This document shows positions 5,134 to 34,868 of a DNA stretch of 37,640 bases, piece after piece; positions within the stretch are counted from its first letter, which is position 1; the number at the start of each line of letters is the position of its first letter. The notes under the pieces were generated by a model, which did not search any database, was not told the origin of the DNA, and was given only the letters and a program-made list of their open reading frames with translations. Made by a program: the position numbers and the translations under genes. This DNA is from Streptosporangiaceae bacterium. GTDB taxonomy: Bacteria > Actinomycetota > Actinomycetes > Streptosporangiales > Streptosporangiaceae. Location of the stretch: NCBI GenBank assembly GCA_035260365.1, contig DATFVJ010000265.1, positions 1-37,640 of the forward strand, in the 5' to 3' direction.

Positions 5134-5934
5134 ATGGCTGAGGCCACAGGCCAGATGGATCAGGAGCACGCCGACGCTCTGCGCCGCCGCTACCTCATCC
5201 GGTTCGAGGAGGACACGCTCAGGCAGCGGCCCCTGTGGATCCGCGTGATCATCGAGTTCATCGGCACGTTCGTCCTGGTGACCGTGGCCGCGGGCGCTGG
5301 CGTGATCAACCACTACGCCGGCGGCGGCCCGATCAGCCGGGCGGCCGCGGTGATCGCGCCCGGCGCGGCCGTGATGGCCATGATCTATGCGTGGGGCCCG
5401 CTGTCCGGGCTGCACATCAACCCCGCCGTCACCTTCGCGTTCGCGAGCCGCCGGGTGTTCCCGCTGCCGTGGGTGCTGCCGTACCTGGTGGCACAGCTGG
5501 CCGGCGCCATTGGGGCCGCGCTTTTCCTTCAGCTCATGTTCGGCGACGTCACCCAGGGCGGCAACTACCCCATCGCCAAGCCGGGCGGCGACTGGCGGTC
5601 ATTCGTGATGGAGATGGTTCTCACGGCAATGCTGGTGAGCATCATCCTCAACACGGCGACGGGGCACCGGAGCATCGGCCACAACGCCGCCATCGCCGTC
5701 GGCTCGACGGTCGCGCTGCTCGGCCTGTTCGCCAGCCCGATCAGCGGCGCGTCGATGAACCCGGCCCGCACGCTCGGGCCCGACATCGTCGGCCACGACT
5801 ACACGGGCTGGTGGGTCTACATCGCAGGCCCGGTGGCCGGCGCCGCCATCGCCGTGATGATCATTATGCTGGTGCGGGGCATCCCGGACAAGCAGGAGCA
5901 GGAGGCCGCGGAGGGCGGCGAGCTGCCCGGTTAG
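5134..5934 (+). CDS. MIP-family channel (aquaporin/glycerol-facilitator-like)
   Basis: Two NPA boxes are present (GLHINPAVTFAF and GASMNPARTLGP) within a six-TM-like hydrophobic pattern. The ORF track starts at GTG 5104. I prefer ATG 5134 because it is preceded by GGGGGA at an SD-like distance. Confidence 0.9.
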   Translation: MAEATGQMDQEHADALRRRYLIRFEEDTLRQRPLWIRVIIEFIGTFVLVTVAAGAGVINHYAGGGPISRAAAVIAPGAAVMAMIYAWGPLSGLHINPAVTFAFASRRVFPLPWVLPYLVAQLAGAIGAALFLQLMFGDVTQGGNYPIAKPGGDWRSFVMEMVLTAMLVSIILNTATGHRSIGHNAAIAVGSTVALLGLFASPISGASMNPARTLGPDIVGHDYTGWWVYIAGPVAGAAIAVMIIMLVRGIPDKQEQEAAEGGELPG

Positions 5935-5940
5935 GGCTCC

Positions 5941-7473
5941 TTAGATGTCGCGCTCGGCCTTGATCCGCCCGGACGCGGCGGCCGCTTCGAGCGCGGCGTG
6001 GTCGCGCTCGTTCTGGTCCGCGTAGGCGCCGGAGAACGCCGCGATCGCGCGGTCGAAGGCGTCACCGCCGCCGAGGTAGGCGGCGATGGCGATCCGGTCG
6101 CCGGACCGGGCGTGCGCCCGCGCCAGCGTCCACCCGCACAGCTCGCCATACAGCCGCAGGCCGTTAGGGATCATGCTGTCGACGTCGACTGAGAACTTCC
6201 AGTCGCGCAGCTGACGGACATAGAAGTCCCGCTGCCGCCCGTCGAGCCCGGCTTCAGTCCGCTGCCAGCCGAGGAAGATGTCGCTCGACGCCTGCATGAG
6301 CCGCTGGCCCGCGACGACCCGCTGGCCCTGGTTGGGGTACCTGCTGGCGCCGGCGAACGCGCTGAGCACGGACCGCTCCGCCTCCTTGACCTGGAGGAAC
6401 AGCGGATCGGAGTCGTCACGGCCGAACATGAGGACGATCCAGCACCGCGTGCCCACGCTGCCGACCCCGACGACCTTTCTGGCCATGTCCGCGAACTGGA
6501 ACTGCGCGAACAGGTAGCGGCGATCCGTTTCCAGCGTGCGCTGGTACTTCCCGATGAGCTCGCCCAGCTGCTCCTCCAGACCGGCCGCGTCCGCCTGGTC
6601 GGGCAGCAGGTCGGCGATCGGCACGAGCAGCGGCGGGTCGGCGATGATGCGCGGCCGGCCGTCGACCACGTGGCACAGCTTGTCGAACGCCTGCAGGCTG
6701 TCGCGCGTCCTGGCCTTGGCCATGCCCTTGGCGACGACCTTGCGCTGCCGCGTGTCGAGCATGGACCCGAACTGCGCCTGCATCTCGTCAAGTTCCGCGT
6801 GCGCGTACCAGACGTCGAGTTCGCGCATCCCGGCGAAGCCCCGCATCGCCGTCCGGTAGCGGGCGACGGAAGCCATCAGGATCTCGCGGCGCTGCTTGGC
6901 GGAGAAGCCGTTGCCCCGCGCCGCCACCTCGAGGCTCGCCGCCAGCCGCTTGACGTCCCATTCCCACGGCCCGGGGAGTGTCTCGTCGAAGTCGTTGACG
7001 TCGAACACCAGCCTGCGTTCGGGTGAGGCGTAGACGCCGAAGTTGGCCAGGTGGGCGTCACCGCACGCCTGCACGGTCAGGCCCGACACCGGGGTCGTGG
7101 CCAGATCGCTCGCCATGGGCAGGGCGGCGCCGCGGTAGTACGTGAACGGTGACACGAGCATCCGCCCGTACCGGACGGGAACCAGCTCGGGCAGCCGCGA
7201 CACCGCCTGCTGTTCCAGCAGGCTGACCGGGTCCGGGCGGTTCGCGGGCGGGTCGAACACCGCGTGCGCCTCGCGGGGCACGCTGGCGCGCGCCGCCTTG
7301 CCGCGGGCGGCTCGCTCCGCCGGTGTCAGGTGCGCGGGTGCCGCGTCGAGCCGTGATCGCTGGACCGGCCCCGGCGCGGCGTCAGGCCCGGATCGTTTCG
7401 CGGGCTGGCCCGTCGCTTGCCGTGCACGCCTCGTTTGCGCTTTGGTCTCTACCACGACACCACGATGCCGCAT
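5941..7473 (-). CDS. DUF2252 family protein
   Basis: The block VPVRYGRMLVSPFTYYRGAALPMASDLATTPVSGLTVQACGDAHLANFGVYASPERRLVFDVNDFDETLPGPWEWDVKRLAASLEVAAR is the DUF2252 signature as I recall it. The track ORF (to 7815) overlaps the EamA gene, so I trimmed it to ATG 7473 (MRHRGVVVETKAQ...). Confidence 0.8.
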   Translation of the reverse strand: MRHRGVVVETKAQTRRARQATGQPAKRSGPDAAPGPVQRSRLDAAPAHLTPAERAARGKAARASVPREAHAVFDPPANRPDPVSLLEQQAVSRLPELVPVRYGRMLVSPFTYYRGAALPMASDLATTPVSGLTVQACGDAHLANFGVYASPERRLVFDVNDFDETLPGPWEWDVKRLAASLEVAARGNGFSAKQRREILMASVARYRTAMRGFAGMRELDVWYAHAELDEMQAQFGSMLDTRQRKVVAKGMAKARTRDSLQAFDKLCHVVDGRPRIIADPPLLVPIADLLPDQADAAGLEEQLGELIGKYQRTLETDRRYLFAQFQFADMARKVVGVGSVGTRCWIVLMFGRDDSDPLFLQVKEAERSVLSAFAGASRYPNQGQRVVAGQRLMQASSDIFLGWQRTEAGLDGRQRDFYVRQLRDWKFSVDVDSMIPNGLRLYGELCGWTLARAHARSGDRIAIAAYLGGGDAFDRAIAAFSGAYADQNERDHAALEAAAASGRIKAERDI

Positions 7474-13999: not shown

Positions 14000-14459
14000 G
14001 ATCGCCTCCAGTCGGATACGGGAACCCGTGCTCAGAAATGCCCACAACCACCTGTTCCCGAACGGCTGCGCACGCGAATCCACCGCGCACAGCGACCCCA
14101 GGCCCCGGCTCGCATCACTCGTCGCCGACGCGCAAGATCCTGCTGACACGTTTTCGAGGTGGCACTTGACTTGGCGGTAAGACGACCCCGTGGGGTCTGC
14201 GGCGCCGCTGAGACGTGCGGGTGCCGGGCCTAAGCCCGAACGCCCGGTCCCCCGCACGTCCTCAGCACCGCCGTGACCGAACCTCGCGGGACGATGCCGT
14301 AGGGGCACAACATCAGTACGCTCGTCAAACTCGGTGAGCACTTCAGGTCGACCAGAGCGCAGTCTGGTCGGGGCTCAAGCGGCAGGGCGTGGTGATGCGG
14401 CGGCCGTGGGAGCGGGGGTCGTGGCCCGAGGAGAGATCGCGGCGACACGCCACTCGTGC

Positions 14460-15362
14460 TTAAACGAAGTGGGTAAAGAGCGGTGGCGTGAGCGCCTTGG
14501 CGCTTCTGGCCGCCGCAGCGATGCGCTCATTCGAAGCAGCCACCTGATTGGGGTCGATCTCAAAACCGACGTATGAGCAACCCAAGCAGCGGGCTACCAC
14601 GCCGGTCGTGCCGGAGCCGCTGAACGGGTCAAGCACAACGACCTCGATGCCAGACTTGCCGTACGCCTCGATGCATCGCCTGGGTAGCTCCTCTGGGAAG
14701 CGGGAGTAGTGCTTGAGGCCGTCGATTTTTTCGTTGGGGAACTCCCAGACCGAGCCGACCGGCGGTGCCGTACGGAAATCATGGCGCTCATCCCGGGCAA
14801 ACAGGAAGATCGCTTCATGTTGCCGGTGCGGCCGGCGGCACTTCCCTTCTGGCATGGGGTTGCGCTTCCGCCAGATGACCTCACCGCGGAAGAGCCAGCC
14901 CGCATCACAGAGGGCAATGACCAGCCGGTACGGCAGGGCGAGCAGGTTGCCGTAGCGGAGCCACGGCTCGTCTCTGTCGATGAATGCCCGGCGCTTGTGC
15001 CGGGGCTTGACGTAGGCCGAGTTATCGGGCGCTAGCCCAATCTTGTCCGGCCCCAGCGTGCTGTAGGAGTGGTCCTCCAGCCGCCAGTTCACCGGGGTGT
15101 TGTAAGCGTCGCCGATGTTGACCCACAGCACGCCGCTTGTTTTCATCTTCGGCAGCAGACCGCCAAAGATGTCGGTCAGCTCAGCCACGTAGGCGCGCGG
15201 ATCTCCCTCGACGCCGTTGCCTTCGGACAGTCGCTGTCCCCAGTACGGCGGGCTGGTCACCGCTACGTCGATGCTGCTGTCTGGTAGCTCAGCAATAAGC
15301 TTCCGACAGTCGCCCTCGGTCACCTCGTTCAGCGGGAATGGCCCCAGTGACGCGGCTGTCAT
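14460..15362 (-). CDS. Beta-class DNA methyltransferase (N6_N4_Mtase family), SPPY motif suggesting N4-cytosine specificity
   Basis: Motif IV (DVAVTSPPYW) lies near the N-terminus and motif I (VLDPFSGSGTTGVVA) near the C-terminus, which is the beta-class order. The SPPY tetrapeptide is characteristic of m4C enzymes. I start at ATG 15362 (MTAASLGPFPLNEV...), which is preceded by GAGGAG. The track start is 15392. Confidence 0.88.
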   Translation of the reverse strand: MTAASLGPFPLNEVTEGDCRKLIAELPDSSIDVAVTSPPYWGQRLSEGNGVEGDPRAYVAELTDIFGGLLPKMKTSGVLWVNIGDAYNTPVNWRLEDHSYSTLGPDKIGLAPDNSAYVKPRHKRRAFIDRDEPWLRYGNLLALPYRLVIALCDAGWLFRGEVIWRKRNPMPEGKCRRPHRQHEAIFLFARDERHDFRTAPPVGSVWEFPNEKIDGLKHYSRFPEELPRRCIEAYGKSGIEVVVLDPFSGSGTTGVVARCLGCSYVGFEIDPNQVAASNERIAAAARSAKALTPPLFTHFV

Positions 15363-15381
15363 GGTTAGCTTCACTCCTCTC

Positions 15382-15414
15382 ACCGGTAGCAATCACCGGT
15401 ACTATAAACCGGTA
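15382..15414. promoter_or_regulatory. Divergent promoter/operator: three ACCGGTA boxes at 13-bp spacing around back-to-back -10 elements
   Basis: The three units read CACCGGTAGCAAT / CACCGGTACTATA / AACCGGTAGCGTG, with boxes at 15382-15388, 15395-15401 and 15408-15414. TACTAT (plus strand, 15400-15405) and TATAGT (minus strand, 15406-15401) are -10-like hexamers for the two divergent transcription units. The whole intergenic region is only 64 bp. Confidence 0.65.
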
Positions 15415-15426
15415 GCGTGTGATGTC

Positions 15427-15939
15427 ATGCCCGACACGCCGAAGCAAGCGCGCTCGCTCTGGCCGCTACCAGGCGGCGCGGGCCAGTACCTGGCCAGTCT
15501 GGACACCATCCTTCACATGGTGGACGAGACCACTGACACTGGCGCGGTACTCGACCAGATCGTTGCGACGTTTGAGCGGGTTCGGAGCCGCAAAGCCGGC
15601 CGCTCCTACCTCCATGTGGTAGCTGACCTCGGCTTGGTAAACCTTGACGGCCCGGCTGTGCGCTTGACGGCGTCCGGCCGGAGGTACCTGAAGACCGGCG
15701 ACGTTGCCCTCGTCCGCAAGGCGCTCCTTGAACGGGTTGACGGTATTGCGGAGCTGCTGCTCCTGCTTGGACAGCGGCCGATGCGAATTGGCCTGCTTCA
15801 CGAGCGCATGCAGACCAGCGGCTACCGCTGGAGCACGATGAGCCAGGTTCGGTATCGGCTGCGCTGGTTGGAAGAGGTGGGGGCAGTGACGCGACACGGT
15901 ACAGCTCGGCCTGAGTATCGCATGCGGACAGCCAACTGA
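15427..15939 (+). CDS. Stand-alone winged-helix (Mrr_N-like) DNA-binding protein, 170 aa
   Basis: I trimmed the track ORF (15217) to ATG 15427 because the upstream part overlaps the MTase gene. The C-terminal RWSTMSQVRYRLRWLEEVGAVTRHGTARPEY resembles the recognition helix plus wing of the wHTH found at the N-terminus of Mrr-type restriction proteins. This assignment is from memory and has not been searched. Confidence 0.6.
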   Translation: MPDTPKQARSLWPLPGGAGQYLASLDTILHMVDETTDTGAVLDQIVATFERVRSRKAGRSYLHVVADLGLVNLDGPAVRLTASGRRYLKTGDVALVRKALLERVDGIAELLLLLGQRPMRIGLLHERMQTSGYRWSTMSQVRYRLRWLEEVGAVTRHGTARPEYRMRTAN

Positions 15940-15958
15940 TTGTCCTACGCTCTCCCTT

Positions 15959-17089
15959 GTGCACCCGGCGATACGTCAGCTATTCCAGCAGCTTGCGCAA
16001 TTGAGGAAGTCTGCCGGACGGTCACCCGAACAGGTAGAGGCATCATTGCTGCTCGGCCCCGGCTGGGTGGAGCGCTTCGAGTCCGGGCAATATGAGCCAT
16101 CACTCGGCATGCTGGCGGCGCTGATCCAGCTCTATGGGACCGATCTACCGACCTTCTTTGCCAAGCTTGACTTGGGCAAGGAGGCGCTCGTGCCTGATCG
16201 TCACCTGAGCGCGAGCCGCGCCGGGCACGACTTGCAGCTCCACTTCCCTATGGGATCGTACGCCGCGACCGTCATACTGCCCAAGGCCAACTTGGCAGAC
16301 CTCAACGCGGTCGTCGGCAAGCTCCGAGACGAGCTAGCAGCAGGGCGACCCAGGGAAGCCATCATGCTTGCCTTCCTTGAAGCGGTGCGCAAGTGGCCGC
16401 ACGCCAACCCATCCGATCTCTGGTATTTCCTGATCGCCCACGCATACCAGGACGACTACAATCATCCGGCTTCCGAGGCTGGTCGGGATTGGGGCCAGAG
16501 CTGGAAGCGAGCCAGCGGTTGGGCGCTGGAGGCGGTCATCGTCCGGCACTATGAGTCGCAGCTCGGCAAGCACGGCATACGCCTGGAGATGCCGCCACCA
16601 AACCGACGCATCGAGCTGCTCCGCCAAATGGGCATTCCGAATCCAGCGGAAATGGCCGAGAAAGCGGATGTTATCGCCATCGGCATGGCGGCTGCCGGTA
16701 ACGAACACCCTTTTGGCGTGGTACATATCAAGGCCAGCTTTGCCGAGCGCCGAACTGATGATGTGCCGCTCAGCCAGCAGTTGATTGCGCGAGGCCTTGC
16801 TAGTCCGCTCGTCACCATGGACTGCAAAGCCTCACCAGGTCCAACGCCGGTCAACCGCGGCGAGCTGGGCCCAACGCAAGGCGGTAACGAAGCGGTCAGC
16901 GCCAAGCGCTACGACATTGAGCGCGATAACAAGTTCGACGCATGCTTCAGCTACAACCAGAGCACCAAGCCGACGCCAGCGGGACAAGCTGCTCCAGCGC
17001 GGATCTATGTTCTCGATCTCGCCAACCCGAATGACAGGTTTTCACAACACTTGATGGCGCGATGGCGCCAGCGGCAAGGGCTGGCGTGA
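15959..17089 (+). CDS. XRE-type HTH fused to a PD-(D/E)xK-like (type II restriction endonuclease-like) domain, 376 aa
   Basis: The N-terminus LRKSAGRSPEQVEASLLLGPGWVERFESGQYEPSLGMLAALIQLYGTDLPTFF fits the XRE/Cro HTH pattern. The C-terminal half has a nuclease-like arrangement: GWALEAVIV...EKADVIAIG...GVVHIKASFAERRTDDVP. This gives E...D...xK followed by a K-x-S-x-x-x-R-x-x-D stretch reminiscent of CCGG-family REases. The start is GTG 15959 with no obvious SD. It lies 19 nt after the wHTH gene. Confidence 0.6.
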   Translation: MHPAIRQLFQQLAQLRKSAGRSPEQVEASLLLGPGWVERFESGQYEPSLGMLAALIQLYGTDLPTFFAKLDLGKEALVPDRHLSASRAGHDLQLHFPMGSYAATVILPKANLADLNAVVGKLRDELAAGRPREAIMLAFLEAVRKWPHANPSDLWYFLIAHAYQDDYNHPASEAGRDWGQSWKRASGWALEAVIVRHYESQLGKHGIRLEMPPPNRRIELLRQMGIPNPAEMAEKADVIAIGMAAAGNEHPFGVVHIKASFAERRTDDVPLSQQLIARGLASPLVTMDCKASPGPTPVNRGELGPTQGGNEAVSAKRYDIERDNKFDACFSYNQSTKPTPAGQAAPARIYVLDLANPNDRFSQHLMARWRQRQGLA

Positions 17090-17263
17090 CGCGCGAGCTA
17101 ATTTAGTGCTGAACACTCAGCGCTTCAGGTCCTCACGCAGACACTTCGCTTCACAAGCTTGCTATATCACGCCTTGTGCCCAACGCTTTCCCCGATGCCC
17201 CACGGCTTTCCCTCGATCCTGTCCGGGTGGGTACCAGTCCCACCTAATGCGAGGTGCGAATAA

Positions 17264-17446
17264 ATGAAATGGGTCAAATCAAGCTACTCGTCAAACGAAG
17301 GCGATTGTGTCGAGATATCACCCATACCTGACGGAATGGCTGTCCGCGACAGCAAAGACCCTGACGGCCCTATCCTGCGATTCTCCGCCGACGCGTGGCG
17401 GGCATTCGTCCGCGAGGTCAAGGCCGGTCGGCGGGAGGTACGCTGA
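17264..17446 (+). CDS. DUF397 domain protein, 60 aa
   Basis: MKWVKSSYSSNEGDCVEISPIPDGMAVRDSKDPDGPILRFSADAWRAFVREVKAG is a textbook DUF397 sequence (W.KSS.S...G.CVE.....V.VRDSKDP.GP.L.F....W..F). The SD GAGGTG lies 7 nt upstream. Confidence 0.9.
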   Translation: MKWVKSSYSSNEGDCVEISPIPDGMAVRDSKDPDGPILRFSADAWRAFVREVKAGRREVR

Positions 17447-17524
17447 CTCGCGAGCCACGCCGGCAGGGCCAGTCTCGTCAGGCACGTCGCGGGCGTCACA
17501 CCCAGGTGTGTTACCCGTCACCCG

Positions 17525-17845
17525 TTATGAACACGCGGCGTCATACATCTTGAACAGGACGGGGACCGGAATCCTCTCACCGGCGGCGACAGCTCCGTGA
17601 ACGTTGTGGCCATCGGGACCGTCCGGTGACAGCCGCCAAGTCAGGCAACGACTGTCACGGAGCGTAAGCGTTCGTGGCGCTCGATCGTGCAGATCCTCCC
17701 TGCCGATTACGCGCTGCTCGATCGGCAGGACTAGTACGACGCAGCCGCGGTGTTCTGCGCGGATGTGCGACCCGCGGTCAGGCTGTCCGCTGTATTGGAA
17801 GGGATCACACGGCGACATTGCGAGAGCCCCCACCTGAACCGTCAC
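17525..17845 (-). CDS. Hypothetical protein, 106 aa (orphan ORF, weak support)
   Basis: This is the only sizeable ORF in the 17.45-18.04 kb gap. GC3 is moderately biased and the start is GTG. I recognise no motif. Confidence 0.3.
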   Translation of the reverse strand: MTVQVGALAMSPCDPFQYSGQPDRGSHIRAEHRGCVVLVLPIEQRVIGREDLHDRAPRTLTLRDSRCLTWRLSPDGPDGHNVHGAVAAGERIPVPVLFKMYDAACS

Positions 17846-18109
17846 GACGACGGATCGGCAGGACCCGTGTGTGCGGACGTCAGTGCGGTTGGCTAGCTCG
17901 ATAGAACGGTCAAGACACAGAGACCACCGGTCGCACCTACGGTCGCTGACCGGGGTGCCCGCGGCGCGTGGACGGTGTCGTCATCGCGCAGTCGCTCCGG
18001 ATATCGGGGCTTGGTGCGAGCTTCCTAGGTTTCTTTAAGGCCGTTGGACGGTCCGTCTTGGGCGGTGCCGCTGGACTGGGACGCATCCGATCCAATGAAG
18101 GAGTGCGTC

Positions 18110-18679
18110 ATGTCAGCACGTAACCGTCGTGTCGCCGTTGCGGGCGTCATCGCCGCGGCGGCGATCGCGGTTCCGACCGCGGCGTTGGCCTATGGTTCCC
18201 AAACGCCGTCCGTCAACCCGCCGAAGCCACCCGCGTCGGCCGCCGCGGCGAAGACGTCGCAGGGCCCGACGGACCTGTCTGGCCTAGCCTCGTCCGCCGG
18301 TATCAGCACGAGCCAGCTCAACGCCGGGCTTGTTGCCGCGAAGCGGGCTGGTGGCAACAGTTCCGCTGGGATCGCCGCGTTCGCCGTCTCAACCGGTGTC
18401 ACGAGCGCGACCGCACAACGGATCGTCTATGCCGTCTTCGGAACCCATGTCGAAAACGGCCCGACCGGGAAGTCGATGGCGGCCGCACTCGCCACCCAGC
18501 TCGGCATCAGTCCGAGCGCTGCACAGCATGCGATGAAGCAGATCATTACGCTCAGCGGCAACCACGGCGTGGACCCAGCCAGTACGGCGTTCGCCGCGGT
18601 CGCCCACGAGCTCGGGGTGAGCCCGGCCAGGCTGGCCCAGGCACTCGTCGCAGCCAAGCGGAGCGTGGCGGGCGGGTGA
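18110..18679 (+). CDS. Secreted/anchored protein with four helix-hairpin-like repeats
   Basis: ATG 18110 is preceded by AAGGAG with 7-nt spacing. The signal/TM segment is RRVAVAGVIAAAAIAVPTAALAYG. Four related segments follow: AGISTSQLNAGLVAAKRAG, TGVTSATAQRIVYAVFG, LGISPSAAQHAMKQIITL and LGVSPARLAQALVAAKRS. It sits directly upstream of a two-component pair. Confidence 0.75.
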   Translation: MSARNRRVAVAGVIAAAAIAVPTAALAYGSQTPSVNPPKPPASAAAAKTSQGPTDLSGLASSAGISTSQLNAGLVAAKRAGGNSSAGIAAFAVSTGVTSATAQRIVYAVFGTHVENGPTGKSMAAALATQLGISPSAAQHAMKQIITLSGNHGVDPASTAFAAVAHELGVSPARLAQALVAAKRSVAGG

Positions 18680-18727: not shown

Positions 18728-19399
18728 GTGCGCGTTCTCGTGGTGGACGATGACCCGGCGGTCCGCCGATCACTGGCCACCGCGCTCGGGCGTGACGGCT
18801 ATGAGGTGCTGGCCGCGGACGGTGGCAGCGCCGCATTCGCCCACCTCGCGGCCGCGCCAATCGACGTGATCGTTCTCGACGTGGCCATGCCCGAGCCGAA
18901 CGGGCTTGAGGTGTGCCGGCGGCTTCGCGCGCGCGGCGTCCGGACCCCGATCCTGATGCTCACCGTCCGCGATCTGGTGGATGATCGCGTCGCCGGGTTG
19001 GATGCGGGCGCGGACGACTACCTCACCAAGCCGTTCGCGCTCGCGGAGCTGCGGGCCCGGCTGCGCGCGCTGCTGCGCCGCACCGGGACGGGTGCCGAGC
19101 AGCTCAGCTACGCGGACGTGGTTCTCGACCTCGCCGCGGCCCGGGTGACGCGGGGCGGGCGCGAGGTTTCCCTGACCCGGACCGAGTACCTGCTACTCGA
19201 GCTGTTCCTGCGCAACCCCGGCCGGGTGCTCAGCCACGCAAGCATCTACCAGGCCGTCTGGGGCTACGACTTTGGGCCGCGCTCGAACAACCTTTGGGTG
19301 TACATCAGCTACCTGCGCACCAAGCTCGAGAGCGCCGGTGAGCCACGCATCCTGCACACCGTGCGAGGGCTCGGCTACGTGCTGCGGGACACGCCGTGA
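18728..19399 (+). CDS. OmpR/PhoB-family response regulator
   Basis: The receiver domain reads MRVLVVDDDPAVR...VIVLDVAMPEPNG...LTKPF. The winged-helix output domain reads LTRTEYLLLELFLRNPGRVLSHASIYQAVWGYDF...VYISYLRTKLE...LHTVRGLGYVL. Confidence 0.93.
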   Translation: MRVLVVDDDPAVRRSLATALGRDGYEVLAADGGSAAFAHLAAAPIDVIVLDVAMPEPNGLEVCRRLRARGVRTPILMLTVRDLVDDRVAGLDAGADDYLTKPFALAELRARLRALLRRTGTGAEQLSYADVVLDLAAARVTRGGREVSLTRTEYLLLELFLRNPGRVLSHASIYQAVWGYDFGPRSNNLWVYISYLRTKLESAGEPRILHTVRGLGYVLRDTP

Positions 19400-20811
19400 C
19401 ACTGCGAAACCGGATCTCGGCCGCGGCCGCCGTCGGTGTGCTGGTGGTCGTCGCCGCGGTCAGCAGCGTGCTGTACGTGTCCTACGCCGCGAATTTGCAC
19501 TCCCGGGTCGATGCCGCGCTGGTCGACGCCGCCCAGCAAGCCTCCACAATCGCTCGGCGCATCAAGCAATCGGCCGCCAGCGACAAGGGATCCAGCCCGG
19601 ATCTGAGCAAGCCGGTCACCGTCGGCAGCATCGAACTCCAACTCTTTCCTGGCCCGGTCAGCGCCGGTCAGCCCACCCAGTTCGGACCGCTCGACAGCCG
19701 CGATGTCGCGGTAGCCGAACGTGCCCAGCCCGCGTACTTCGCCGACGCGCGCGACGGCGGGCAGCGGTACCGCGTCTACACCGCGGCCATGCCGGAGATG
19801 TCAGGCGGTGCCCTGGTCCGTACCAGCCGGGCGGCGAACGCCGATGACGGCGCGCTACGCACCGCGACGCTGCTCCTCGCCGGGCTCACCATCGCGGCCG
19901 CGGTCGTCACCTACGGCATAGCCCGGCTGACGGCAGGCCGCATCCTCCGGCCGATCGCCGAGCTCACCGCAGCCGCCGAGCACGTCACCCACACCCGCGA
20001 CCTCACCGCCCGCCTCGGCTCCACCGGGACCGACGAGGTAGGCCGGCTCAGCGCGTCGTTCGACACCATGCTGGCCGCGCTGCACGACTCGGTGACCGCA
20101 CAGCGGCAACTGGTAGCCGACGCGTCCCACGAACTGCGCACGCCACTGACCAGCCTGACCACGAACCTCGACCTGCTCGAGGACGGCAAGGGGCTGACCG
20201 ACCCGCAGGCACCCGCTCTGGTCCGAGCGGCACGTGAACAGGCCGGCGAACTCAACCAGTTGATCACCGACCTGCTCGACCTCGCGCGTTATCGCGAGTC
20301 CGCACCACACCGCGAAACCGTGCGCCTGGACCTGCTCACCGACGAGGCAGTGCGCCGCGTGCGGCAGCGGATGCCACACGCAGCCATCGACACCGACCTG
20401 CACCCCTGCCTAGTGCACCTCGACCCCGCCGCGGTCGATCACGCCATCAGCAACCTGATCGACAACGCGATCAAGTGGAATCCCCCCGACGCCGCGGTGC
20501 GCATCGTCGTCGACAACGGCCGAGCCTCGGTCACCGATCACGGCCCCGGCATCGCCGACGAGAACCTCCCACACATCTTCGAACGCTTCTATCGAGCACC
20601 CGCCGCACGAGGAATGCCAGGCGCCGGGCTCGGCCTGGCGATCGTGGCCGGCGTCGCGCACGCCGACAGCGGGACGGTCAACGTGCGCACCGACTCAGGC
20701 GGCTCGACGTTCACCCTCGCGTTCGCTCCCCTCGCCCTGCCAAGCGATGCGCACGTCTCGACCGACCCGCACGCTCGTATAACGCCAGACGGCACCGGCC
20801 AAGGCAGCTAA
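19396..20811 (+). CDS. Sensor histidine kinase (TM-HAMP-HisKA-HATPase_c)
   Basis: It has an N-terminal TM segment, a second TM segment plus HAMP, the H-box ADASHELRTPLTSL, the N box NLIDNAIKW and the G boxes DHGPGI and GAGLGLAIV. The start is coupled to the RR gene by GTGA (19396-19399). Confidence 0.92.
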   Translation: MTLRNRISAAAAVGVLVVVAAVSSVLYVSYAANLHSRVDAALVDAAQQASTIARRIKQSAASDKGSSPDLSKPVTVGSIELQLFPGPVSAGQPTQFGPLDSRDVAVAERAQPAYFADARDGGQRYRVYTAAMPEMSGGALVRTSRAANADDGALRTATLLLAGLTIAAAVVTYGIARLTAGRILRPIAELTAAAEHVTHTRDLTARLGSTGTDEVGRLSASFDTMLAALHDSVTAQRQLVADASHELRTPLTSLTTNLDLLEDGKGLTDPQAPALVRAAREQAGELNQLITDLLDLARYRESAPHRETVRLDLLTDEAVRRVRQRMPHAAIDTDLHPCLVHLDPAAVDHAISNLIDNAIKWNPPDAAVRIVVDNGRASVTDHGPGIADENLPHIFERFYRAPAARGMPGAGLGLAIVAGVAHADSGTVNVRTDSGGSTFTLAFAPLALPSDAHVSTDPHARITPDGTGQGS

Positions 20812-32546: not shown

Positions 32547-32668
32547 AAACACATCTCCCACTGAATCATGAGTAGCGCGTCCGGCCGGCCGGCGTAAGTG
32601 CCGGAAGTCCCGACTTTCCCTGTGGCCACATGCTCACCGGAAGCTGGCGGCGGCGCGTGGCGGGCCGG

Positions 32669-33388
32669 TCAGCCCGCGCGCTCGGCGCGCTGAAGCCCGG
32701 CGGCGACGGCGACGCTGACTGCCTCGAGGCGGCTGTGGACGTCCAGCTTGGCGAAGATGTTGCGGGTGTGGGTGCGCACGGTGTCGGTGGAGATCAGCAA
32801 ATCCTCGGCGATCTGGCGGCCGCGCTTGCCGTCCATCATGCTCAGCATGACGTCTTTTTCCCGCGGGCTGAGCATGTGCAGCGGGTTGGCGCCGTCCATC
32901 GCGCCGTTGAGGCCGGTCCGCATGTCACGCAGGATCTCGCCGAGCATGTCCGGGGGAAACCAGGACTGGCCGTGGCAGACCCCGCGCAGCACGGCCTCGA
33001 GTTCCGCCGCGCCCTGCTCCTTCGCCACCCAGGCGACCACGCCGGCCCTGGCGGCTTCCACCGCGTGCTCGACGTTGCGGTCGGAGCTCAGCACCACGAC
33101 GCGCGCGGCCGGCCGAGCCTCGACGAGCCGCCGCAGTACCTCACCGAAAGCGGAGCCGAGCGGCTCGATCTCGATGGTGATGACGTCAGGCCGCACCCCG
33201 CGGACGATGTCGATCAGGTTCGGGTCGAGCGTGGCGCAGCGGCCGGCCACCCAGAGATCCAGCGCCGCGGACAGCCGCGATGCCAGCGCTTCGGTGACCA
33301 TCAGATGGTCGTCGACGAGCAGCAGTCGCAGGATGTCCACCTGCCCACTGTGCACGCCGGGAACGGCCCGGTCCTCATCCAGATGCAT
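32669..33388 (-). CDS. NarL/LuxR-family response regulator (RR2)
   Basis: The receiver domain reads ILRLLLVDDHLMVTEAL...DVITIEIEPLG...VVVLSSDRN...GVVAWVAK. The LuxR HTH reads LSPREKDVMLSMMDGKRGRQIAEDLLISTDTVRTHTRNIFAKLDVHSRLEA. I start at ATG 33388 (MHLDED...), which has GAGGG upstream. In-frame alternatives are ATG 33412 inside the repeat and GTG 33571 (the track start). Confidence 0.8.
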   Translation of the reverse strand: MHLDEDRAVPGVHSGQVDILRLLLVDDHLMVTEALASRLSAALDLWVAGRCATLDPNLIDIVRGVRPDVITIEIEPLGSAFGEVLRRLVEARPAARVVVLSSDRNVEHAVEAARAGVVAWVAKEQGAAELEAVLRGVCHGQSWFPPDMLGEILRDMRTGLNGAMDGANPLHMLSPREKDVMLSMMDGKRGRQIAEDLLISTDTVRTHTRNIFAKLDVHSRLEAVSVAVAAGLQRAERAG

Positions 33389-33403
33389 GACAACGCCCTC
33401 ATC

Positions 33404-33480
33404 CGAATCCATGGGCACCCGAATCCATGGGCACCCGAATCCATGGCACCCGAATCCATGGGCACCCGAACCATGGGCTG
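33404..33480. repeat. Tandem repeat, 16 bp x about 4.8 (CGAATCCATGGGCACC), each unit containing CCATGG
   Basis: Units lie at 33404-33419 and 33420-33435 (identical to each other), 33436-33450 (one G missing), 33451-33466 (identical to unit 1) and 33467-33480 (degenerate). The array is immediately upstream of, and overlaps, the RR2 start region. Confidence 0.9.
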
Positions 33481-33720
33481 CGCCCGGCCCACCGGCCGCC
33501 TCCCGTGCGGTGACGTCAGGGGGCGTCAGCAGCAACACCAACCGGCCATCGCCGTGGCCAGAGCCCTCCAATCGGAGCCGGTAAACAGACCAAGATCGGC
33601 AACTATGTCAATCTGCTTGCGCTATGTGCAGGCAGAGTTCCACAGAAACGGATCTTGGGCGCGCCGGGCGCGGCGGGGTTGATCGGGCTGCCGTCCCGCC
33701 TTGATCGCAAGGGGTGGCGC

Positions 33721-34485
33721 TCAGCTTGGCAGGGTCACGCGGATCTTGGGCTGGTGGTCCCACGGGTCGTGCCAGTCATCCATGAGCCGCGCCGCGAGCC
33801 CGTACTTGGCCGCGAGCGAGACGAGCGTCTGCGTCCGGTAGTAAAAGTCTTCGCGCAGCACCTGGTAGTCGGCTTCATCGGAGCGGTAGAAGGTGAAGTC
33901 GAAGATCGCGCCAGGGGCCATGACACGTCCGACGTGCGCCAGGCACTCGTCGATGACCTCGATCGGGCAGTGCGTGAACACGCTGTTCGCGTGCACCACG
34001 GTGAAGTACCCGGCCGGCAGGAACTCGAAGGTCAGGTCCGAGACAATGGTCAGCCTGGGTAGTTTGCCCTGGAGCCCGGACTCGGCGAGCACCTGCTGCG
34101 CCGCCACCATGATGTCCGGTGAGATATCGATCCCGTAGTAGTTGCCGGTGTCGAGGTAGTCGATGAGCAGCCGGCCAGCCCGCAGGTTGCCGCATCCGAT
34201 CTCCAGGATGCGGTCGGCCGGCTTGAGCCCGTGCGTCAGCAGGTAGTCGAACTGCATCTGGCCGAACTCGAGCCATTGGTCGTGGCTCCTGCTGCCCACG
34301 GCGACGTCGACGTTGTGTGACGCCTTGTACTTCATCACGGCCCGGTAGTAGCTGACGTGGTCACCGGCCCGGGCGCGCAGCCACGCGTCGACGAGGACTC
34401 TGCGCACGTACGGCAGGATCTGATCCGGGTGCTTAACCGCAAAGATGATCTTGTAGGAAAGACGAGACCTGTTCTGGGTTGTCAT
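33721..34485 (-). CDS. Class I SAM-dependent methyltransferase
   Basis: Motif I is ILEIGCGNLRAGRLL and post-I is YYGIDIS. I trimmed from the track ORF (34815) to ATG 34485 (MTTQNRSRLSYK...). Its G+C is visibly lower than that of its neighbours. Confidence 0.82.
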   Translation of the reverse strand: MTTQNRSRLSYKIIFAVKHPDQILPYVRRVLVDAWLRARAGDHVSYYRAVMKYKASHNVDVAVGSRSHDQWLEFGQMQFDYLLTHGLKPADRILEIGCGNLRAGRLLIDYLDTGNYYGIDISPDIMVAAQQVLAESGLQGKLPRLTIVSDLTFEFLPAGYFTVVHANSVFTHCPIEVIDECLAHVGRVMAPGAIFDFTFYRSDEADYQVLREDFYYRTQTLVSLAAKYGLAARLMDDWHDPWDHQPKIRVTLPS

Positions 34486-34868
34486 AGCACCAGTGAAGCT
34501 AGATGTTGAGCAGGACTTCTCCTCCGAATAGGGTACCGGGATCCCCCGGGCAGCCAAGCCGCACCGCCGCGGAGCGCCAGTGCGCTGAGCGCGGCGCATC
34601 GACCACCCCCGCGTGTGCGGCAGCGCCCCGGCCGAATGGATCACCGCGCGTCCTCCCCGGCACGGCTCCGGTCCGTGCCACCCGCAGGCTGCGCAGCACC
34701 GCGATCGGCACCGGCCGGCACCCGCGGGCGGCACCGCTTCTCCGCCATTTCGGCGAGGGCAGCTACCCCGGATGAATGAGCAAACCCTAGGCGCCCCGAT
34801 GCCACAGTCGGTCACGGATCACCACAACGGGGGCACCGTGCCTTCCACACGGGCTTGGGGGACTTGCA

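Follow-up and report, generated by a model that had tools for sequence, protein, structure and literature searches.

An AgeI-like restriction-modification locus of a Streptosporangiaceae bacterium, with three predicted target sites in its divergent promoter region

A type II restriction-modification (R-M) system has to restrain its nuclease until the host genome is protected, and this is a control problem of life or death. Here we ask how it may be solved at a locus of a Streptosporangiaceae bacterium (GenBank assembly GCA_035260365.1, contig DATFVJ010000265.1, positions 1 to 37,640). This whole stretch of 37,640 nucleotides is termed the window, and its numbering is used throughout. A preliminary description of the window had proposed an atypical R-M-like module of four genes that resembled no recognized system. 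The four open reading frames (ORFs) are all present as described. A beta-class TSPPY methyltransferase lies on the minus strand (14460-15392 in the ORF list as the longest ORF, with a TTG start at 15392). Two genes lie on the plus strand, encoding a stand-alone tandem winged-helix protein of 170 amino acids (aa; 15427..15939) and a 376-aa protein (15959-17089) in which an XRE-type helix-turn-helix (HTH) domain is fused to a nuclease. The fourth is a DUF397 gene (17264-17446; Pfam, 6e-24).

The core of this region (window 14460-17089) is an AgeI-like type IIP R-M pair of the CCGG/AgeI family, a system of known kind, and the proposed four-gene system does not exist. The most unusual feature of the locus had gone unmentioned: three predicted target sites are placed in the 64-bp divergent promoter region. 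The reading we favor, to which we assign a probability of roughly 60%, is that of an R-M pair directed at ACCGGT, with a relic HTH domain on its nuclease, a methylation-coupled switch like that of the CfrBI system, and the winged-helix protein as reader, the DUF397 gene being unrelated.

An AgeI-like nuclease and its methyltransferase

A PD-(D/E)xK-like arrangement had been noted in the C-terminal half of the 376-aa protein, and a check of the fold bears this out. Residues 130-368 match AgeI (PDB 5DWA) at 2.9e-34 by phmmer, and the PADLOC profile REase_II is matched at 9e-36. An AlphaFold2 model built from 110 homologues (pLDDT 95, pTM 0.89) was matched by Foldseek to the AgeI-DNA complex 5dwb_A over 290 columns (E 3.3e-21, 33% identity), with a TM score of 0.86 normalised to AgeI; BsaWI was the second match. 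Because of this superposition, the AgeI-homologous part is taken to run from about residue 80 to the end (16196..17089, plus strand), which leaves only about 75 residues extra at the N-terminus. The whole fold of AgeI (PDB 5DWA/5DWB/5DWC), which belongs to the CCGG family with BsaWI, NgoMIV, Bse634I and SgrAI, is shared. Pfam found nothing in the protein beyond its HTH domains, and NCBIfam gave no match for either this protein or DUF397.

The active site of AgeI consists of E97, D142, K168 and D178; CCGG is read by E173/R174 together with V89/R90, and the outer A:T pairs by K200, E214 and K224, which are situated on an element unique to AgeI (PMC5389614). In the alignment, the active-site residues correspond to E191, D237, K258 and D268 of the window nuclease, the CCGG-reading residues E173, R174 and R90 to E263, R264 and R184, and the outer A:T-reading residues to K290, E302 and K316. 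V89 is the sole listed residue of AgeI that does not face an identical one, and all ten matched residues are invariant in the 110 homologues. The motifs that had been singled out earlier, ADVIAI and HIKASFAERRTDD, contain the equivalents of AgeI D142, K168, E173, R174, D177 and D178. The nuclease thus has in common with AgeI the permuted PD...K-X12-13-(E/D) active site of the CCGG family, the E-R readout of CCGG and the K200/E214/K224 element. Since the catalytic and DNA-reading residues are identical and invariant, we predict that the 376-aa protein is an active enzyme that cuts ACCGGT, the target being that of AgeI because the readout of both CCGG and the outer A:T pairs is shared.

The partner gene encodes a methyltransferase with matches to Pfam N6_N4_Mtase (PF01555, 2.8e-33) and PADLOC MTase_II (PDLC03387, 1.3e-54), so that PADLOC recognized both enzymes of the pair. 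Its motifs are in the beta order, with motif IV (TSPPYW) at residues 46-51 of the ORF and motif I (DPFSGSGTT) near the C-terminus; TSPPYW is present in all 74 homologues that cover the motif. The start of the gene is probably ATG 15362 rather than TTG 15392, giving a product of 300 aa that begins MTAASLG (14460..15362). This ATG is preceded by a GAGGAG Shine-Dalgarno sequence, homologues align from query residues 8-16 onward, and 300 aa is the length given by gene callers on contigs of the same genome; the TTG start would make the ORF overrun the promoter sites described below. The product of the reaction is predicted to be N4-methylcytosine (m4C), because S replaces D/N in motif IV. The top PDB sequence match is CcrM, an N6-methyladenine (m6A) enzyme, and the mark may alternatively be m6A on the outer A of the target. 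A literature search on ACCGGT together with m4C found nothing useful. M.AgeI, whose type the AgeI paper does not state, is said to be a 5-methylcytosine enzyme. The window system would then differ from AgeI in its beta-class TSPPY (m4C-type) partner, as it does in the extra N-terminal HTH of about 75 residues on a nuclease that is about 33% identical.

A protein search identified 835 relatives of the nuclease, mostly of 370-400 aa and with an HTH domain. In a survey of one genome per species, 119 species-level loci encoded a relative, from Actinomycetota, Pseudomonadota, Chloroflexota, Planctomycetota, Nitrospirota, Acidobacteriota and other phyla. We fetched 80 of these genome loci for analysis of gene neighborhoods. 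In all 80, a methyltransferase 50-74% identical to that of the window adjoins the nuclease gene, which together with the Pfam, PADLOC and AgeI matches upholds the earlier assignment to restriction-modification. The two genes are usually convergent, with only a few actinobacterial loci divergent like the window. The preliminary description had presented the fusion of an XRE HTH to an endonuclease as unusual. The fusion is real and it is not a one-off: a large AgeI-like family has the HTH::nuclease as its usual architecture, and fusions of controller (C) proteins to restriction endonucleases (C::REase) have already been published (PMC3850674). The family is a source of predicted ACCGGT-specific enzymes from many phyla; its members are annotated by NCBI and JGI as XRE transcriptional regulators. 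A rough neighbor-joining tree of the nuclease domain, rooted with AgeI, has three clades: an actinobacterial one that includes the window, one in which a C protein is fused to the nuclease, and a large one mostly with a separate C gene.

Target sites, promoters and the winged-helix protein

Between the methyltransferase and winged-helix starts lies an interval of 64 bp, tcACCGGTagcaatcACCGGTactataaACCGGTagcg. It contains three copies of ACCGGT(A), at 15382, 15395 and 15408 (15382..15413), with a start-to-start spacing of exactly 13 bp. The identical triple, with the same spacing, is found just 5' of the winged-helix gene in loci L002, L032, L081, L082, L098, L113, L206/207 and L208/209 of our collection, even though the winged-helix proteins of these loci are only 46-85% identical to that of the window. 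Where a winged-helix gene is present, nine independent loci have three sites and one has two; the triple occurs in none of 77 family loci that lack the gene, including the divergent L001 and L037. In two metagenomic loci, L208 (4062-5513) and L209 (225-1676), the three sites persist with the genes for the winged-helix protein and the methyltransferase, and no nuclease gene follows downstream; these may represent an orphan methyltransferase with its regulator. Because these two retain the sites and the 77 loci do not have them, the sites follow the winged-helix gene and not the nuclease. Linkage of the winged-helix and fusion genes to a methyltransferase, part of the earlier proposal, holds in every related locus. 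The gene order is permuted in L217 (3732-6642), where the nuclease and methyltransferase genes diverge from each other, with the winged-helix gene downstream of the nuclease; this locus adjoins SMODS/S_4TM (CBASS-like) and PIN_8 genes. Neither promoter sites of this kind nor a winged-helix gene has been reported for AgeI.

Metagenomes were also scanned for ACCGGT-N7-ACCGGT-N7-ACCGGT, with at least 120 matches. Perfect 13-bp tandem repeats without relation to R-M account for nearly all of the matches listed, among which only L098 and L113 added loci with a methyltransferase and a winged-helix gene. The triple motif alone is therefore not diagnostic. Look-alikes of the ACCGGTA type (L094, L104, L105 and L188) were rejected, having no R-M genes nearby. 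Perfect 13-bp arrays whose unit starts with ACCGGT are found in L083, L097, L114, L139, L159 and many other loci, and are unrelated to this R-M family.

The three sites coincide with predicted divergent promoters (15400..15428). On the minus strand, a putative methyltransferase promoter (P_M) has a -35 element ATGACA (15428-15423), a 16-nt spacer and a -10 element TATAGT (15406-15401). It agrees with the consensus at 10 of 12 positions and is the sole sigma-70-like match between 14300 and 18100. On the plus strand, a candidate -10 element TACTAT (15400-15405) for the winged-helix and nuclease genes (P_wR) overlaps the -10 of P_M. Both -10 boxes fall between sites 2 and 3, where TACTAT or TATTAT is conserved in most orthologues. 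The two promoters are thus predicted to be interdigitated, each over the three sites.

The protein whose gene follows this region was modelled by AlphaFold2 (pLDDT 94, pTM 0.88) as two winged-helix domains, WH1 at about residues 21-80 and WH2 at about residues 107-166. No Pfam winged-helix model reaches its curated cut-off, HTH_12 is matched weakly at 1e-3, and no relative was found in PDB by sequence. By fold, PDB offered no match at E<1e-3, only generic winged-helix matches, the best over the whole protein being the recognition domain of BpuJI, which itself consists of two winged helices (TMq 0.56); FokI and SelB were also among the matches. The close family is small, 50-72 proteins among 5.8 billion, and all of its members adjoin either this R-M system or BREX-related systems, many on contigs that match those of nuclease homologues in size.

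An exhaustive profile search extended the module to 826 cluster representatives at E<=1e-3 (47 at E<=1e-30). Among the best 150 of these, 75 are multidomain proteins, with Mrr_cat in 36, HARE-HTH in 17, Mrr_cat_2 in 5, HSDR_N in 3, and GmrSD_N and Mrr_N in 1 each; the homology to Mrr-type proteins reaches E values of about 1e-38. Judged by its domain partners, the module is mainly a DNA-binding appendage of Mrr-type nucleases, and this lends some support to a role in reading methylation. The protein had been called Mrr_N-like. As a domain assignment this fails, with no match to Mrr_N (PF14338) at E<0.1, and yet the suspected kinship with Mrr is real in that homologues of the module are mostly fused to Mrr_cat. 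Mrr-type (type IV-like) nucleases with HARE-HTH, Mrr_cat and a C-terminal tandem winged helix carry the homologous module; that of the window is free-standing, has no nuclease domain in its 170 aa, and accompanies a methylation-sensitive type II system rather than a methylation-dependent one. Several AAA ATPases are also found among the fusions of the module (proteins P0207-P0331).

A stand-alone sister subfamily, with 35-40% identity, is encoded between genes for a Snf2 helicase-nuclease (NOV_C) and a DUF1156 methyltransferase, in operons of Type-1 BREX-related systems with a DUF499/HEPN_Swt1 ATPase. The winged-helix genes are at 4267-4824 in L205, 6001-6558 in L213, 3784-4350 in L214, 1975-2541 in L215 and 1940-2464 in L219; in L205 and L213-L215 their stop and start codons overlap the neighboring genes. 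The 2026 survey in which Type-1 BREX-related systems were defined lists only an ATPase, a methyltransferase and a helicase for them (PMC12839542). No ACCGGT clusters were found in the distant winged-helix loci L205, L213-L216 and L219.

For the actinobacterial sub-clade we infer that control resides in the 64-bp region, with its interdigitated promoters and three sites, in place of the HTH. In a new cell the sites would be unmethylated and P_M would win, so that methyltransferase builds up and then methylates the genome together with the three promoter sites. This methylation, sensed by the winged-helix protein, by RNA polymerase directly, or by both, would close P_M and free P_wR, and the winged-helix protein and the nuclease would be produced only once protection stands. 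From then on the methyltransferase would shield the sites of the host and the nuclease would cut unmethylated ones. The locus and about ten relatives thus suggest a compact design, of about 60 bp of DNA and three small genes, in which expression of the nuclease is tied to methylation of three sites and to a dedicated DNA-binding protein.

A close parallel is CfrBI, whose methyltransferase is of the N4-cytosine type, as that of the window is predicted to be. In both systems the methyltransferase and nuclease genes are divergent, and the overlapping, mutually exclusive promoters, predicted in our case, contain the system's own target site. The promoters of CfrBI are governed by methylation of a single site (PMC12707154), whereas the window has three at a fixed 13-bp spacing. 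It also adds a dedicated tandem winged-helix gene, predicted to be co-transcribed with the nuclease gene, that always accompanies the sites. In this the locus recalls classical C proteins (C.PvuII, C.AhdI, C.Esp1396I, C.BclI), whose small DNA-binding protein genes are likewise just upstream of the nuclease and co-transcribed with it; the winged-helix protein is presumed to time expression of the two enzymes as they do. Classical C proteins are, however, five-helix HTH dimers that act at a palindromic C-box, while the window protein is a tandem winged helix and its presumed operator repeats the R-M target itself three times in direct orientation. A review of 2025 recognizes four modes of type II control, namely promoter methylation (CfrBI, "apparently rarely used"), methyltransferase-HTH fusions, antisense RNA and C proteins, and mentions one C protein that acts solely by blocking P_M, which frees an overlapping divergent promoter (PMC12707154). 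A control module that combines a tandem winged-helix protein with interdigitated promoters over three target sites appears to be undescribed.

The HTH domain, DUF397 and rival explanations

The preliminary description took the N-terminal HTH as a C protein fused to its nuclease. The domain (residues 1-70; 15959..16168, plus strand) is a five-helix HTH of the XRE/C-protein kind, with a match to HTH_31 at residues 10-62 (Pfam, 7e-11). Its fold matches include ClgR, ImmR, C.BclI, DdrO and C.Esp1396I, and hhalign related the window-type HTH to the family's own C proteins with 95.7% probability at 17% identity. Residues R16, G35, W36 and E41 are invariant in 110 sequences. However, the domain has LGPGWVERFESG where C proteins have DRTYIGGVERGERN. 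Both the separate C proteins and the fused-C clade have the signature DR(T/S)Y(I/V)GG(V/I)ERGERN, which the window HTH lacks: at these positions it reads LGPGWVERFESGQYEP, with P-G-W for R-T-Y and ESGxxEP for ERGERN. All family members outside the fused-C clade, the window included, have LGPGWV.RFESG. The fold matches include PDB entries of the C.Esp1396I mutants T36A, Y37F and R46A, and we take T36, Y37 and R46 to be the equivalent positions and to contact DNA; the DNA-reading residues would then be replaced in the window protein.

In 41 of the 80 loci a separate C gene of 73-80 aa ends at, or overlaps, the nuclease start, carries the classical signature LDRTYIGGVERGERNISL (HTH_3, 3e-16) and has a conserved box, TGATACTTATAGTCCGTGGACTTAT, upstream. 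Another 14 loci, the majority of them labelled Dehalococcoidia, lack a separate C gene; there the box TGGTACGATTAGTCCGTAGAC is upstream of the nuclease gene and the nuclease N-terminus itself bears the canonical signature. In this fused-C clade (L063-L080, for example L066 at about 5900-7077) the N-terminus reads DRSYIGGVERGERNP, and the upstream box TGGTACGATTAGTCCGTAGAC agrees with TGATACTTATAGTCCGTGGAC, the C-box of sister loci in which the C gene is separate. To judge from signature and box, its members are true C::REase fusions. Fusions of this type have been published for CR.NsoJS138I and other PvuII orthologues (Liang & Blumenthal 2013), where they act as both C protein and nuclease (PMC3850674). 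The window protein resembles these in being a type IIP endonuclease with a Cro/C1-type HTH covalently attached at its N-terminus, and differs in its AgeI-like nuclease and, throughout its clade, in an HTH without C signature or C-box.

The family C-box TAGTCCGTGGACT has no match with three or fewer mismatches between 14400 and 17100 of the window. The C signature is lost, there is no C-box, and half of the family has a separate C gene alongside the HTH, all of which argues that the window HTH is not a working controller. It looks like a relic C-type domain, ancestral and family-wide, and probably has a structural or dimerization role instead of one in gene control; dimerization is suggested by AgeI, which is a monomer that must dimerize on DNA (PMC5389614). 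The side-by-side presence of free, fused and relic C domains in one nuclease family appears not to have been described, and provides a natural series for the evolution of R-M control.

The DUF397 gene, which begins after a gap of 174 nt from the nuclease gene, had been counted as part of the module. No DUF397 gene occurs in any of the 80 genome loci, in the metagenomic relatives that are closest (89% and 82% identity), or in the other winged-helix loci (L081, L082, L098, L113 and L203-L209). It is beside the module solely on contigs of the window's own genome and, being missing from all related loci, is an unrelated neighbor outside the module. The adjacency that is conserved in actinomycete XRE/DUF397 (WhiJ/BldB-like) pairs is thus not seen in relatives of the window.

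These results bear directly on the view that all four genes form one cassette, with the fused XRE HTH as controller and DUF397 as its partner, as in the actinomycete pairs. The HTH is indeed homologous to C proteins, a sister clade has true C::R fusions, as do PvuII relatives (PMC3850674), and the DUF397 gene shares the same lower-G+C islet only 174 nt downstream; but its absence from related contigs, including those of 82-89% identity, largely refutes the cassette, and the missing C-box, the P-G-W residues and the separate C gene in 41 of 80 loci make the HTH a poor controller. We regard this explanation as highly improbable. More improbable still is that the 376-aa protein is a mere transcriptional regulator with a dead nuclease-like domain, which would make the methyltransferase an orphan. 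The public names used by NCBI and JGI ("helix-turn-helix domain-containing protein", "transcriptional regulator with XRE-family HTH domain") would suit such a protein, and yet the AgeI catalytic and DNA-reading residues are invariant in 110 homologues, pairing with the methyltransferase is strict, and the REase_II match stands at 9e-36.

For the 170-aa protein itself we tentatively propose, at odds clearly short of even, that it reads the system's own methylation mark: a module of Mrr-type nucleases turned transcription factor, which would bind the three ACCGGTA sites according to their m4C state and license the nuclease after methylation. If so, it would constitute a fifth mode of type II R-M control, and its relatives in BREX-related systems may act likewise. 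A switch of the pure CfrBI type, in which methylation alone redirects RNA polymerase from P_M to P_wR and the winged-helix protein is an accessory DNA-binding or scanning subunit like BrxA in BREX, seems to us unlikely. CfrBI does work without a protein reader (PMC12707154), the overlapping stop and start codons in Type-1 BREX-related operons embed the homologues in a manner more typical of a subunit than of a regulator, and BrxA has been described as structurally like the DNA-binding domains of FokI and BpuJI (PMC12839542), both of which are among the fold matches given above. However, the triple is never found without the winged-helix gene, even in the divergent L001 and L037; the sites are immediately 5' of that gene, and again so in the permuted L217; and 76 of 80 homologous enzyme pairs need no accessory subunit. 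Somewhat less likely again is an epigenetic bistable switch of the agn43/OxyR kind, in which the winged-helix protein would bind only the unmethylated triple in competition with the methyltransferase, giving heritable ON and OFF states and phase-variable restriction. The layout is formally that of agn43, in which three methylation sites are inside one operator over the promoter, and retention of methyltransferase, winged-helix gene and sites without a nuclease in L208/209 would fit an epigenetic regulator module. Yet unmethylated ACCGGT would be cut in a cell that makes the nuclease unless permanently shielded, and a naive host holds no winged-helix protein to repress. Moreover, the relatives of the module in Mrr-type nucleases point to binding of modified DNA, the archetypal Mrr being triggered by methylated DNA (PMC12707154).

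Several observations weigh against the favored reading of a methylation-coupled switch with a winged-helix reader. The specificity is predicted from a homologue at 33% identity, and ACCGGT is not depleted in the 37.6-kb window, with 19 sites against 11.8 expected. The promoters are consensus predictions in a high-G+C actinomycete. The array itself varies, with two full sites only in the Gordonia plasmid relative (L203/204) and, in L217, where the gene order also differs, two ACCGGT sites 16 bp apart in a hairpin with an 8-bp stem just before the winged-helix start. As to the reader, 76 of 80 homologous systems do without a winged-helix protein, and its most conserved motif, SQVRYRLRWLEE, is kept in the BREX-related homologues that have no ACCGGT clusters. 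This, above all, calls for caution on sequence-specific reading by the SQVRYRLRWLEE helix, which may not be the reader of ACCGGTA.

Genomic setting

The module sits in an apparently acquired islet, with a G+C content of 0.61-0.65 from about 14000 to 18000 and 0.68-0.75 on either side, as the preliminary description had suggested. Among the close relatives, L081 is part of a conjugative element; integrase, ImmA/IrrE and NACHT genes adjoin L082; the Gordonia plasmid relative is situated between a toxin-antitoxin pair and an IS3 element; and CBASS-like genes are found beside another. Because close relatives occur in a conjugative element, a plasmid and defense islands, the module would fit a mobile defense cassette. 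The plasmid collection contained one record only, Gordonia hongkongensis p1.

A tRNA scan and a repeat search for island borders revealed no tRNA and no convincing flanking direct repeats. None of the ORFs in 17100-17900 and 14334-14576 has a Pfam match; these flanks therefore show neither an integrase nor any trace of an XRE partner for DUF397. In the right-hand part of the islet, the DUF397 gene, an orphan with no XRE/DUF5753 partner, is followed by about 600 bp of lower-G+C sequence (17450-18040), with ORFs that have no Pfam match. A second lower-G+C islet (about 0.64) is present at 32630-34815 of the window, adjoining UDP-glucose dehydrogenase and GT2 glycosyltransferase genes. It contains a 350-aa ORF without a Pfam match and a class I S-adenosylmethionine-dependent methyltransferase (33721-34815, minus strand). 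The ORF at 18044-18679 encodes 211 aa, rich in alanine and with internal repeats, and has a hydrophobic stretch at the N-terminus. Pfam matches it only to HTH_10, at the C-terminal end (residues 178-209; E 2.5e-5), although no single stretch passes the threshold, and directly downstream of it is a response regulator/histidine kinase pair (18728-20811).

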